32,000 bases of DNA from Candidatus Saccharimonadota bacterium (GCA_041661045.1 JBAZVE010000001.1:1170001-1202000), one strand, 5' to 3'. Positions 5,042 through 8,491 are shown, numbered from the stretch's first letter. The notes: generated by a model not told the origin, from the sequence alone. Program-made: numbers and translations.

Positions 5042-8000
5042 TTAAACCTCTTGCATGGGACTCTCTGGGCTTGCCTCCCCCGGTGTGGGCGTATTTGGGG
5101 CTAAGCTTTTCTCAATTTCTTCTAAGAATTGTGCATCTTTATAATTTGCAATTGTAAGTGTCGCAAAGTCAGCAAAGGAGACTTCCTCCCCTTCCGGGGT
5201 CTCAACTTTTTCATCACAAAGGAATTGCCAAATTCTCATCTCTTCATCTCCCTCAACCTGTTCTTGACCCTTTTGTAACTTTTGCATGAGTCGAATGAAT
5301 GGGTCATCAGCCTCTTCACCAAATTTGGCTTTCACAAGCCGTCGAAATAGTTCGAAAGAAGGTATGATTAAGACTTGTTGAGTATAAAGAAGATCCATCT
5401 TTTTAATATCTATCCAAGAACCATCTGAATAGCTTTGGTATACTAAGAGTTCTTTTTCAAGTTCTGCTTTTTTTACCAGTAAATCCTCCTCTTTCTCCTT
5501 TAGAGACTCTTTCTTTTCAAAATCTTCTGTTTCGAGGGCATCCATTTTTGTTTCTGCAATTTCCTTCTCAATGTCCTTAATATCCTCCGTACACTCTTCG
5601 GCGGCTTTGCCCGCGTTATTGATCAAATCTACTAGATCATGCATCCGATGATCTCCATAGGGCCACCATCGTTTTCCTTGTACTACTTCTTTTACAAAAT
5701 CGGGGTGCCAAATGTATTTGGATTGTCGAAGGTAGTCCAAAGGGTCTGTTTCGATATCGATTCCATCACCGTAAAGTCCTGCTGCATCTGCTGTATACAA
5801 TAAGGCTCCAAGTGGACTCATTGTACTGGCTAAATAGTTGCTAATACCTTTAGCTGGTGTGGTCTTAAAAAGCTCATTTCGATTTGGAAAATATTTCTGA
5901 AGCCTTGGGCGACCCCACGCATTCCATGCTGCTTGCCCACCTAAGGAGCTTGCCGTTCCGCCCACCACAAAACCTACTGCTTTCCCAACAGGATGAGGAA
6001 TAGCAGCTGCAGTCAACTTTCCTCCCAATAAAAAGCTGCTTGTCATGCTTGCATTTTCAAGATAAGTGTTCGTCTTGTCTTTTGATTCTTGAAATTCATG
6101 AAGCATATATAAGGTCCCAATAATTCCTGCGGCCTTACTGAGTCTTGCAGCGCTTTTAAATAATTCTGGGTGTTTTATTTTGAATAAAAGTGTTTCCAAA
6201 TCCCTAGCTGTTTTTTCTGGATTTGGCATGGATTCCAGCTCATCCAGAAATTGATCCAGCTGCTGTGGAGAAAATTCAAATTCACGAATACGGAGTGTGA
6301 CCCTCTCGTGCGTTAAGCCTAGTTTCTCAAGGCGTTCTAGTTGTTTTGTACTCACCTTTGCTCCCAACCCTTTTGCAGTGGCTTCTGCATGGGTTTTATA
6401 TTTTGGATTTAGTACCCGATATTTGGGTAGCTTTGGAAGATTTTCCGTAGGATTATCTGTAAGAAATTTCTTTGCTGAGGCATTGAGTGTTCCTCGGTCG
6501 CTTGCGTCTGTTTCTATTCCTTCTTGAGAGATCTGTGCAATATCGTCCGTAAGGCCGGCAGCTTCCAAGAAGGCCTGTCTGGTCTCGAGATACTGTTTCC
6601 CTGATTTAATCATCATTTTGTTTACCCACTTCTCTCCAAAAAGTTTACCGTAGGCTTTGGCAGCGTATTTTCTAACGAAACCGGTTTGTCTTTTTGCAGT
6701 TTGTTCTTTTTTAAAATAGTAATCGTAGCGCTCTGCGAAGTAAGCTGTTTTCTTATGGAGCACATGAATTCTTTCTTGCGGGGATAGAAATGGTTCATTT
6801 GCTTCCGCTGTAAGTTTCCAATATCTGAGATCTTGTGCGGCCTCTGTACCGACGGATAAACTTTTTACCCCTAACTTTGGGAGCAAGAGATAGGAATCTA
6901 AAATTCCTCGTACGGCTCCTCTTGCCGCGGTGCCTGCTATTTGTCCACCTTTGATGTCTCCAGCTTTTATCCCTTTCACTAAGGTCTTGGTGGCGTTGAA
7001 AGCAGCATAAGAACCGGCCCACCAAATTTGTTCTGTTTCGAAGGGAACATCTTTCCACTCTCCTTCTCCAGACATGGCTTCGATTAAATCCTTAAATTGG
7101 CTGCACACAATATCGATGCTACTCAATGGGATGATCATTCCAAGTTTTCCTAAAAAGAGCACCCCATTATATATTCCCATTGACCAGCCATCTTTCGCTG
7201 CTCCGCCTATCATTTCCAGGATTCCATCATCCCAGCTCAAGTCTCCACTCTTCATTCCTTCCCAAGCCGCTTTAACATGTGGTGCTTTTGTAAGCGCTTC
7301 TTCCGCTTCCGGGCTCAAAGGGTCTTCTTGTGTGTCTCCACTGGTTTCTTTTGTATCTTCTTTCTCGGGGTTTCCGAAAACGCCTTCTTTTTCCAGTGCA
7401 TTTAGAATCTCTCCAATACTCATATCCTCTATTCCAGCCCCAATTTTATCTTCATGACGCTTTATGAAAGATTCAAGTTTAACCTCTTCCTTTATGGTTT
7501 CTCCTCCATTATCGAAGCCCACAGCCGGCATATTATCTAGTCCCACGGCCTCTAAAATGGATTGGGCATATCCTTTACCAGTACGACCTACTCCTTTGCG
7601 AAAGTTTGAAAAGTCTCTCCACTTCACATCTTTGAGATCTATTAGCGTTCGCTCAGAAATATCGAGTTGCTTGGCGGCTTTTTTTATTCCTGGTTCCCTG
7701 GAACTAAAAGAGAGAGAGTCCACACCCTTACCTGCCAGAAGATCATTTATGGCGTCTTGGGATACATCTAGTCCCAAATAATCTGCAGACCACTTCCCTA
7801 TATGTTCAGATCCCACTAAAACTCCAAGCCCTAGGGTTGTGAGTATGGATCCAAAAACTAGGTTTTTATTTTCTTCTTTGCCTTCTTCTTCCTTGAAGTA
7901 GTTCCAAAAGAAATAGGCAGCTCCTGCGGCTGCTGCCAGCATGAGGCCGCCTTTAACCGCTGGGGACATCCATTTTGTTTCATCAGACTCTTCGTGTTTC

Positions 8001-8491
8001 TCGGCTTTTTCTTTTTCTGCAAGGATATTGTTGTATCTTTTCTTTGCAGATTTGAGAGTCATCTTCCACCATGCTTGTGTAGGTTCAAACTGGGCGTTAA
8101 AAATTTCATTTAACTTTTGAGTGGATTGAATTTGAACTTCTGTTTTTGCAACCTTCGTCAGTAGCATCGAATTCTGAGCCAAATCTTCCTCCTTTTCTCC
8201 GCCTTGCAGGCTTAGGAGGATCAGTTCTTCTGTCACGGCCTCTAAGGCTAGTTTAGCTTCTTTCTGTTCGTCGAGCGGTTTTTCAGCATCTATGGCTAAA
8301 ATCATTCGGAGTATTCTGTCTTTGGGTTTCTCCTGTGGTTCCTCTGTTTCTTGAATCTGATCGAGCCCGACATCGACTCCTTGACGAAGTTCTTCCAGGT
8401 CTTGGCGCATGACATCCGTTTGGCTCTTGCCATCCTCTTTATGCTCGATTTGTTGATCAGTGATTGACATAGCTACTTGAAATCTCCTCAT
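5042..8491 (-). CDS. Giant orphan membrane protein (1149 aa) with coiled-coil-like ends and glycine-zipper segments
   Basis: Longest ORF in the window. Acidic E/K/Q-rich N-terminus (aa 1-175), hydrophobic hairpin (aa 181-228), GxxxG-periodic segments at aa 507-529 (GIKAGDIKGGQIAGTAARGAVRG) and aa 836-860 (GKAVGFVVGGTASSLGGQAAW), and an E/K-rich segment at aa 960-1015. Alternative start ATG at 8470. Confidence 0.85.
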   Translation of the reverse strand: MRRFQVAMSITDQQIEHKEDGKSQTDVMRQDLEELRQGVDVGLDQIQETEEPQEKPKDRILRMILAIDAEKPLDEQKEAKLALEAVTEELILLSLQGGEKEEDLAQNSMLLTKVAKTEVQIQSTQKLNEIFNAQFEPTQAWWKMTLKSAKKRYNNILAEKEKAEKHEESDETKWMSPAVKGGLMLAAAAGAAYFFWNYFKEEEGKEENKNLVFGSILTTLGLGVLVGSEHIGKWSADYLGLDVSQDAINDLLAGKGVDSLSFSSREPGIKKAAKQLDISERTLIDLKDVKWRDFSNFRKGVGRTGKGYAQSILEAVGLDNMPAVGFDNGGETIKEEVKLESFIKRHEDKIGAGIEDMSIGEILNALEKEGVFGNPEKEDTKETSGDTQEDPLSPEAEEALTKAPHVKAAWEGMKSGDLSWDDGILEMIGGAAKDGWSMGIYNGVLFLGKLGMIIPLSSIDIVCSQFKDLIEAMSGEGEWKDVPFETEQIWWAGSYAAFNATKTLVKGIKAGDIKGGQIAGTAARGAVRGILDSYLLLPKLGVKSLSVGTEAAQDLRYWKLTAEANEPFLSPQERIHVLHKKTAYFAERYDYYFKKEQTAKRQTGFVRKYAAKAYGKLFGEKWVNKMMIKSGKQYLETRQAFLEAAGLTDDIAQISQEGIETDASDRGTLNASAKKFLTDNPTENLPKLPKYRVLNPKYKTHAEATAKGLGAKVSTKQLERLEKLGLTHERVTLRIREFEFSPQQLDQFLDELESMPNPEKTARDLETLLFKIKHPELFKSAARLSKAAGIIGTLYMLHEFQESKDKTNTYLENASMTSSFLLGGKLTAAAIPHPVGKAVGFVVGGTASSLGGQAAWNAWGRPRLQKYFPNRNELFKTTPAKGISNYLASTMSPLGALLYTADAAGLYGDGIDIETDPLDYLRQSKYIWHPDFVKEVVQGKRWWPYGDHRMHDLVDLINNAGKAAEECTEDIKDIEKEIAETKMDALETEDFEKKESLKEKEEDLLVKKAELEKELLVYQSYSDGSWIDIKKMDLLYTQQVLIIPSFELFRRLVKAKFGEEADDPFIRLMQKLQKGQEQVEGDEEMRIWQFLCDEKVETPEGEEVSFADFATLTIANYKDAQFLEEIEKSLAPNTPTPGEASPESPMQEV

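Follow-up and report, generated by a model that had tools for sequence, protein, structure and literature searches.

A two-module family of large, putatively envelope-associated proteins encoded at a fixed RecG-Elp3 locus in candidate-phyla bacteria

Described systems and how the locus compares

In Absconditabacteria, a sister lineage of the bacteria considered here that includes a predatory epibiont, large membrane proteins are thought to mediate contact with the host (PMC8080830). The PT-TG domain (PF14449) has been described solely from antagonistic, exported proteins of type VI secretion systems (T6SS), type VII secretion systems (T7SS) and contact-dependent inhibition (CDI) systems, in which it forms a linker or pre-toxin domain; its own function is uncharacterised (PMC13483458). 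The subject of this analysis is a large gene on the minus strand, at positions 5042 to 8491, of a 32,000-nucleotide stretch of DNA from Candidatus Saccharimonadota bacterium (GCA_041661045.1 JBAZVE010000001.1:1170001-1202000), which in its whole length is called the window below. Profile comparisons indicate that the large protein encoded by this gene contains two new protein modules, an N-module and a C-module, which are unannotated in the public sources searched. We tentatively favour the possibility that the protein is a putative membrane-anchored, surface-exposed and non-enzymatic envelope protein that would serve in contact with, or perturbation of, the envelope of another cell.

The family resembles polymorphic toxins with PT-TG in that long proteins join one conserved N-terminal part to different C-terminal parts, and three of the relatives (P0017, P0023, and P0031) bear PT-TG itself. 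In contrast to the PT-TG systems, the window protein carries no PT-TG (E<=1), LXG, WXG, VgrG, RHS, FHA, or toxin domain; unlike in polymorphic toxins, its locus is a fixed one among housekeeping genes, the C-terminal exchange separates deep lineages, and an adjacent immunity gene is missing. With glycine-zipper proteins, such as those with the VacA-type GxxxGxxxG motif, the Gly-zipper T6SS effectors and the SlyB-type hairpins, the large protein shares Gly/Ala/Ser-rich helices, an i+4 periodicity of small residues and moderate hydrophobicity. It differs from them in that its glycines are not strictly conserved, its hydrophobicity is marginal, and no export signal, delivery or immunity gene accompanies it; sequence homology or significant structural homology to these proteins was not found either. 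Class I viral fusion proteins (gp41/HA2-like) and translocators (IpaB/SipB) can be compared by analogy only: helical hairpins, a Gly/Ala-rich, moderately hydrophobic peptide and a putative anchor are common to both sides, and the composition of AVGFVVGGTASSLGGQAAW in the large protein resembles, in the same purely analogical sense, that of a fusion peptide. Homology is absent, the Foldseek match to IpaB having an E value of 7.2.

The family and its two modules are new as families of sequence and structure. Lineage-specific proteins of candidate-phyla bacteria with a role in the envelope or in interactions are, as a kind, already known, and orphans as large as this one are frequent in the genomes of such bacteria.

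The gene and its family

The open reading frame (ORF) listing of the window contains an uninterrupted frame of 1149 codons at 5042..8491 (minus strand). It is the longest of the window, as had been noted before, the runner-up being that of isoleucyl-tRNA synthetase (IleRS) with 1091 aa. The ATG at 8491 falls within the -10 hexamer TATAAT (8495-8490) of the promoter described below, Met8 (ATG 8470) is the point at which the alignment starts in all homologues, and the public gene call for exactly this protein, P0001, has 1142 aa. The true start is therefore ATG 8470, and the revised coding sequence runs over 5042..8470 (minus strand), with 1142 aa followed by the stop codon TAA at 5044-5042. The original prediction, a description of this DNA made from its sequence alone, was thus right on the coordinates and the continuity of a 1149-aa frame but not on the start of the protein; every peptide that it quoted lies at the amino-acid and nucleotide positions it had assigned. 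Amino-acid numbers throughout follow its 1149-codon numbering, in which Met8 is the true start.

When 1.84 billion representatives were searched exhaustively with phmmer, 32 cluster representatives, mostly of 1040-1290 aa, were returned at E<=0.001, and the protein, which had been called an orphan, is not one in the strict sense. A word-indexed search yielded five close clusters with 45-50% identity across the full length, and the same kind of search with the family alignment yielded 6 proteins that added no names or annotations. In the source records, no family member bears a name or a Pfam domain. To judge from full-length homologues that share 23-50% identity and keep the motifs, the large gene is real, intact and under constraint; the mapping of homologues and neighbourhoods that had been recommended gave a family in a fixed genomic slot, and the fragmentation in related genomes that had been considered as a refuting outcome was not encountered. 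The genome records of the carriers are metagenome-assembled genomes (MAGs) labelled Candidatus Peribacteria, plus one labelled Candidatus Gracilibacteria. Within the candidate phyla radiation, such MAGs fall in the Peregrinibacteria/Gracilibacteria branch. The contig that contains the window measures 1.32 Mb. From JGI metagenome contigs, only two relatives were recovered.

The statement that no family could be recognised was borne out. Nothing above noise was found for the large protein in Pfam, NCBIfam, PADLOC, or PHROGs (in the last, no match at E<0.08), and searches of 23 family members with Pfam and NCBIfam gave nothing but isolated noise above E=0.001. Sequence searches of the PDB with the single protein, a family profile and a profile of the conserved blocks gave nothing below E=0.02. 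Structure comparison, which had also been recommended, was carried out with AlphaFold2 (AF2) models and Foldseek and gave no significant fold match in the PDB or BFVD. With the full-length model the best E value was 1.1 in the PDB and 0.027 in BFVD, and with a separate model of the C-module the best PDB match had an E value of 2.0, none being <=0.001; the template modelling (TM) scores of the best matches, normalised by query length, were <=0.15. The full-length model, based on a 23-sequence alignment, has a mean predicted local distance difference test score (pLDDT) of 68 and a predicted TM score (pTM) of 0.43. For the C-module model, based on a 28-sequence alignment, the mean pLDDT is 76, with aa ~956-1126 at 90-98.

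Two separable modules and their partners

Hidden Markov models (HMMs) of the modules were built without the test sequences. The N-module (aa ~52-667, 6491..8338, minus strand) was found as an independently occurring unit, without the C-module, in P0017, P0023, P0031, and P0030. The C-module (aa 697-1132, 5096..6403, minus strand), detected with an independent HMM, is the second such unit. In P0017, P0023, and P0031, the C-module is replaced by a tail of ~350 aa with PT-TG followed by Gly/Ala-rich hydrophobic stretches; the PT-TG scores are 24.0 bits for P0031, 23.9 for P0023, and 16.5 for P0017, with a cut-off of 23.5. Comparison of these tails with the C-module using hhalign showed no homology (probability 0.3%). 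Both P0017 and P0031 occupy the same slot between the Elp3-like gene and RecG as the large gene does. In all, the last 400 aa are exchanged for a PT-TG tail in three lineages. The C-module, for its part, stands alone in P0038, follows a LysM domain in P0036 (23.7 bits, cut-off 20.9) and P0027 (19.5 bits), follows other unmatched N-terminal regions in P0029 and P0039, and follows unrelated N-terminal regions of ~800 aa in P0032, P0035, and P0037. PT-TG and LysM are domains that are usually present on exported proteins.

In another lineage, the C-module-only protein P0029 (754 aa) is encoded as the last gene of a co-directional cluster (locus L017, 2995-9914). The cluster also contains two paralogous orphan proteins of ~650-670 aa, each followed by a small, Lys/Glu-rich ORF of ~110 aa.

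The modular make-up bears on an explanation in which the protein is a released effector in the style of polymorphic toxins, the N-module being a novel trafficking domain and the C-module a membrane-inserting, pore-forming payload for a host or competitor. The pairing of the N-module with either a C-module or a PT-TG tail at the same locus is what would be expected in that case, as is the recurrence of the C-module behind LysM or different N-terminal regions; helices rich in Gly and Ala that carry a small-xxx-small face would suit such a payload. The Foldseek neighbours in the PDB, all non-significant and leads at most, include XaxA (E=2), pyocin S5 (E=5.5), and IpaB (E=7.2), as well as a glycine-zipper match to SlyB over 44 residues with a root mean square deviation of 1.5 A (E=9.5). 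Several observations nevertheless make a released effector improbable. The window protein has neither PT-TG nor a known trafficking domain, and what follows its gene is a convergent, unconserved gene rather than one resembling an immunity gene; neither a toxin domain nor a downstream gene on the same strand was found. No secretion system is encoded nearby, and the locus keeps its syntenic place. C-terminal swaps were seen only among deeply diverged lineages, the structural matches are all non-significant, and the highly charged loop of the hydrophobic hairpin described below would be hard to translocate spontaneously.

Genomic position, evolutionary rate and base composition

The window is made up of housekeeping genes, among them those for tyrS, RecG, an Elp3-like radical-SAM protein, a methyltransferase, WecG, GatB, a signal peptidase, Fmt, SSB, PGK, RuvX, and IleRS. 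In all related loci long enough to judge, the large gene comes immediately after the Elp3-like gene and is convergent to the RecG operon, and a distant variant with a different N-terminal region is still located between RecG and Elp3, albeit in a rearranged orientation. As this slot is kept even in distant variants, gene order argues that the large gene is a vertically inherited core gene of the lineage and not a mobile one. In the window and the related loci it is not part of any island, prophage or defence locus. A role in defence, one of the functions originally put forward, is not supported, given the lack of a PADLOC match and this fixed housekeeping neighbourhood.

The Elp3-like gene itself (8523-10136, minus strand) encodes a bacterial Elp3-like protein with Radical_SAM and Radical_SAM_C domains and, by eye, an acetyltransferase-like C-terminal tail. 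Its product is 57-85% identical across all loci, it is nearly always directly upstream of the large gene, and no terminator-like site separates the two.

The large protein diverges 2-3 times faster than its neighbours while its full length and motif set are kept. Within the same genome pairs, its identity is 46% in L001, 38% in L007, 28% in L008, and 23% in L010, as against ~78, ~70, ~68, and ~70%, respectively, for tyrS and RecG. Fast evolution is typical of exposed or interaction proteins.

The G+C content of the large gene is 0.430, compared with 0.462 for the window. The lower G+C that had been noted is therefore real, although the two spot counts amount to 17 and 25 of 60 rather than 18 and 26. 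The deficit sits in the third codon positions: their G+C content (GC3) is 0.370, and 18 of the 19 other genes have values of 0.42-0.61. For the homologues in three related genomes, GC3 falls within the range of the neighbouring genes. This normal GC3 in relatives, together with the synteny, argues against a foreign origin, and horizontal transfer was rejected as the cause of the low G+C content.

Origin as a remnant of a phage tape-measure-like gene or of another mobile element was considered because phage proteins, either uncharacterised or of the tape-measure type, are the best BFVD neighbours (E 0.027-1, TM <=0.10, all non-significant) and because length, helicity and Gly-rich hydrophobic stretches are reminiscent of tape-measure proteins. 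Unlike tape-measure genes, the large gene has no phage context and no PHROG match, its relatives are absent from 2.9 million viral contigs (IMG/VR), housekeeping genes flank it in every locus, and its synteny is fixed across deep divergence. Context and absence from viral contigs effectively refute such an origin, which is scarcely credible.

A conserved promoter

A promoter of the sigma-70 type is located at 8490..8518 (minus strand), with the -35 hexamer TTGTAA at 8518-8513, a 17-nt spacer and the -10 hexamer TATAAT at 8495-8490 within the invariant AGGTATAAT. The near-consensus promoter reported earlier is thus found at 8518-8490 and is conserved in related loci. Its score of 10/12 is by itself unremarkable, as three such sites occur in 4.5 kb compared with 5.0 +/- 2.1 in shuffled sequences; it is the only start-adjacent intergenic site scoring >=10/12 in the 32 kb. 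The sequence AGGTATAAT occurs once in the 32 kb, where 0.04 occurrences are expected. The pattern TTG-N18-GGTATAAT is present exactly once per locus in 12 of 17 loci and always just upstream of the homologous gene; in one of these 12, the encoded protein is only a C-module fused to LysM. The remaining loci have a -10 element GGTATAAT or GGTAAAAT followed by an AGATT(T/A)A motif. This footprint persists across loci whose proteins share 23-30% identity, and it speaks clearly for a dedicated and probably strong promoter. The large gene is probably transcribed strongly and constitutively.

The GAGGAG sequence (8488-8483) that had been noted after the promoter is not conserved, and the start of transcription is expected at or downstream of it. 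With a -10 element that ends at 8490 and a leader of ~13 nt, its role as a ribosome-binding (Shine-Dalgarno) site is doubtful, as it is probably upstream of the start of the transcript. A motif (A/G)AGATT(T/G)A is located 3-5 nt downstream of the -10 element in the window (8471-8489) and in L001, L007, L008, L011, L014, and L016. It approximately coincides with the expected transcription start and would imply that the leader is very short and lacks a conserved Shine-Dalgarno sequence.

Hydrophobic hairpin, topology and putative function

The acidic N-terminal region of the large protein is followed by a Gly/Ala-rich hydrophobic hairpin (aa 177-231, 7799..7963, minus strand), delimited by hydropathy and flank charges, which is a candidate membrane anchor or internal signal-anchor and was modelled by AF2 with a pLDDT below 50. 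It consists of two uncharged, Gly/Ala-rich segments at aa 177-196 and 208-231, with a Lys-rich loop between them. Two uncharged stretches of 16-23 aa with Trp/Tyr/Lys flanks and a Lys-rich loop are present in 23 of the 33 members analysed. Flank charges were counted in 23 family members in which both segments could be delimited automatically: the loop has on average 5.3 Lys and Arg residues, the 15 positions that precede the hairpin 2.9, and the 15 that follow it 1.4. According to the positive-inside rule, positively charged flanks stay cytoplasmic. The difference between the loop and the residues after the hairpin therefore predicts that the loop would be cytoplasmic, that the second segment would be oriented as a signal-anchor and that the ~900 C-terminal residues would be outside.

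Small-residue motifs are overrepresented in the protein, with 13 GxxxG motifs compared with 6.8 +/- 2.3 in shuffled sequences, and 30 small-xxx-small-xxx-small motifs compared with 12.2 +/- 3.8. Column statistics of 23 sequences show that the first of the two glycine segments pointed out earlier (aa 507-529, 6905..6973, minus strand) is a charged, indel-prone stretch of which only K-G-A-x-R-G (524-529) is conserved. In the second segment, positions 836, 840, 844, 848, and 852 are Gly, Ala or Ser in 52-77% of the same sequences and Gly itself in 26-55%, and position 845 is Gly, Ala or Ser in 91%. What segment 2 keeps is a face of small residues; segment 1 is not a conserved zipper. The further step to a classical glycine-zipper pore former is not supported, given the unconserved segment 1, the marginal hydrophobicity and the lack of a signal peptide or of secretion and immunity genes nearby; in the structure searches, no significant similarity to pore-forming toxins was found.

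In the reading that we favour, as possible rather than probable, the Gly/Ala-rich hairpin would anchor the protein in the cytoplasmic membrane with its Lys-rich loop in the cytoplasm, the second hydrophobic segment acting as an uncleaved signal-anchor. The ~900 residues downstream of it would be displayed outside as a long, all-helical ectodomain with a conserved head at its C-terminus and a helical stalk of variable length. In the C-module, helices rich in Gly, Ala and Ser (aa ~775-905) may pack via their small-residue faces, and the packed helices would either drive oligomerisation or insert into the membrane of a partner upon cell contact. The residues of the C-module that are invariant family-wide are Pro, Tyr, Trp, and Phe residues plus K806, N870, and R871. 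A catalytic constellation of His, Asp, Cys, or Ser is not conserved family-wide in the C-module, and HxxHD (aa 948-952) was rejected as a catalytic motif as it is kept only in close homologues. As no recognisable catalytic residues are present, action by binding or membrane perturbation is proposed rather than enzymatic action. Insertion into the membrane, the orientation in it, exposure at the surface and a role in contact or membrane activity are inferred from the charge pattern of the hairpin, the fast evolution, the conserved promoter, the partners of an exported type and the biology of the sister lineage. The membrane-remodelling or host-interaction factor of the original prediction is neither shown nor refuted by these data, which favour it indirectly through fast evolution, hairpin charges, the PT-TG and LysM partners and the small-residue face.

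A number of observations weigh against a surface protein of this kind. The Kyte-Doolittle means over 19-residue windows are 1.2-1.8 overall and 1.3-1.6 in the hairpin segments, and a Hessa-type insertion estimate is at best +3.1 kcal/mol. The hydrophobic segments are accordingly marginal transmembrane candidates, none of them clearly hydrophobic enough, and the hydrophobic hairpin reported earlier stands as a pair of uncharged, Gly/Ala-rich segments, albeit of marginal hydrophobicity. The large protein has no N-terminal signal peptide, and its gene has no adjacent genes for secretion, pili, adhesion or immunity. An all-helical, E/K-rich ectodomain is also typical of cytoplasmic proteins, and the best-conserved block, which follows the hairpin, is (below threshold) helix-turn-helix (HTH)-like, which would be sensible only in the cytoplasm. 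The PT-TG and LysM matches are in relatives, not in the window protein itself, and are near their thresholds; moreover, LysM is also found in proteins without signal peptides.

Several of these points suit a membrane-tethered scaffold in the cytoplasm, with the hairpin as its anchor and both ends inside, in which the HTH-like block and the helices at aa 560-690 would bind DNA or a conserved partner, for instance in organising the chromosome or the division site of a lineage in which many canonical factors are missing. The block concerned is the most conserved one of the protein, GKWxADYL...FSSREPGIKKAAKxLxIxERTLIDLKDVKWxDF (aa 232-300, 7592..7798, minus strand), as defined by alignment. Nearly all of its residues are invariant in the homologues of 45-50% identity, and the block is kept in 24 divergent members. 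The HTH-like motif within it (aa 267-291, 7619-7693, minus strand) matches HTH_8 with 14.5 bits, below the cut-off of 22, over ~15 residues that correspond to profile positions 21-35 of 42. Among the 24 members, sub-threshold matches were obtained to HTH_8 in three (E<=5), to NUMOD1 in three, and to HTH_3, HTH_17, HTH_22, and GerE once each. The likeness to the Fis/NtrC-type HTH (HTH_8) consists of xxAAxxLxISxxTLxxL in the best-conserved block and of a helix, a three-residue turn and a helix in the AF2 model. It differs from that type in that only ~15 residues align, in that the Gly at position 9 is Asp, Asn or Lys in close homologues, and in that the protein is a putative membrane protein.

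For a scaffold of this kind speak, besides the family-wide recurrence of PGIKKAAKxLxIxxxTLxDL and the several sub-threshold HTH matches, the constant place of the gene amid housekeeping genes in those genomes of the lineage that were sampled, the missing signal peptide, an acidic N-terminus of 170 aa that is unlikely to be exported, the all-helical and E/K-rich fold and the net positive charge of aa 501-700. The positive-inside pattern, on the other hand, makes the loop rather than the flanks of the hairpin cytoplasmic, and all HTH matches are below their cut-offs and ~15 residues long. Moreover, 2-3x faster evolution and replacement of the C-terminal module at the same locus would be unusual for a core scaffold, and the PT-TG and LysM partners point outside the cell. 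On balance, a cytoplasmic scaffold is rather unlikely, though worth keeping in mind.

It is also conceivable that the membrane features are illusory and that the protein is a soluble cytoplasmic one with an unrelated function, the Gly/Ala stretches reflecting buried packing of the Ala-coil type. No segment is convincingly transmembrane in hydrophobicity, AF2 places the Gly/Ala segments of the C-module as long helices within a helical bundle, and small-xxx-small motifs are common in soluble helical packing. A hairpin pattern that is typical of membrane hairpins, present in 23 of 33 members, and the lowest AF2 confidence exactly at the hairpin point the other way, and we regard a soluble protein as unlikely.

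A bolder version of the favoured surface reading would see in the large protein a previously unrecognised cell-cell device, in which a membrane-anchored helical stalk carries fusion-peptide-like C-module helices that tether to, perforate or fuse with the host membrane, the PT-TG-tailed and LysM-fused versions being lineage-specific adaptations to host envelopes. This version is highly speculative and very unlikely. Peregrinibacteria and their relatives are uncultured, and for the proposed surface protein the interest is that it offers a concrete candidate for their contact machinery. It qualifies as such by being lineage core, strongly promoted, fast-evolving, probably envelope-associated and of no known fold, and by its swaps of PT-TG and LysM partners. 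With a rare family of 32 representatives, the finding is a useful lead rather than a surprise.

Anatomy of the large protein

The AF2 model of the full-length protein is nearly all-helical. The acidic N-terminal helical region (aa 8-172, 7976..8470, minus strand), visible in composition and charge as originally described, contains conserved EQKE and WW motifs and is modelled as helices with a pLDDT of 72-84 at aa ~57-157. Downstream of the hairpin and the most conserved block, alignment indels and a pLDDT of 28-38 mark an acidic linker of variable length that is probably disordered (aa 376-403, 7283..7366, minus strand). It is followed by a Gly-rich, poorly modelled region (aa 404-560) and by basic, aromatic-rich helices (aa 560-690).

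In the C-module, the second Gly segment (aa 836-860, nt 5912-5986) is part of a longer conserved unit (aa 832-871, 5879..5998, minus strand), in which IPHPxGK, a small-xxx-small helix and W..YGxPxLxKYFPNR follow one another; P869, N870, and R871 of the FPNR motif are at least 86% conserved in 28 sequences. In the GxGDGVDEETDPLxYL motif (aa 905-921, 5729..5779, minus strand), the residues P917 and Y920 do not vary in any part of the family. The next element is an E/K-rich helical hairpin (aa 953-1023, 5423..5635, minus strand), for which AF2 predicts two helices of 33-35 residues with a pLDDT above 90 and which differs in length between homologues. The conserved C-terminal head, SYxDGSW...PAFExF...KFG...EMxxWQxLCD...FADF (aa 1020-1130, 5102..5434, minus strand), is modelled with a pLDDT of 87-98, and its residues W1026, W1088, and F1106 are invariant family-wide. 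Comparison of six segments of the protein using hhalign revealed no internal repeats. The ends of the protein, including an E/K-rich block, had been called coiled-coil-like; long E/K-rich helices are indeed predicted, but heptad periodicity is not above that of shuffled sequences.

Other features of the window

An Rfam scan of the window gave no matches. In the space between the two convergent genes, 15 nt downstream of the large gene's stop codon, there is a G+C-rich inverted repeat (5004..5027), which is followed by a T-run only on the plus strand, that is, for the transcript from the RecG side. A 77-aa ORF (4769-5002, plus strand), which immediately follows RecG and faces the large gene in convergent orientation, occupies a slot that in related loci contains small ORFs without evident similarity, and its status as a real gene is doubtful.

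A type II toxin-antitoxin pair (1940-2518, minus strand; G+C 0.38-0.40) is located between tyrS and RecG and is missing at that position in related loci. It consists of a Phd/YefM-like antitoxin (2234-2518, minus strand; 20 bits, below the cut-off) and, following it, a toxin of the ParE family (1940-2224, minus strand; ParE_toxin, 33.6 bits, cut-off 23). A 257-aa orphan ORF (1151-1924, plus strand) with hydrophobic C-terminal segments has a G+C content of 0.354 and a GC3 of 0.295. It has no Pfam match and no detectable counterpart in L001, where an unrelated hypothetical gene fills the slot.

The methyltransferase (10089-10838) and the WecG-family glycosyltransferase (10804-11586) are encoded in the window by separate, overlapping genes. 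In a distant relative (L016, 13806-15302), the two are fused into one product of 498 aa.

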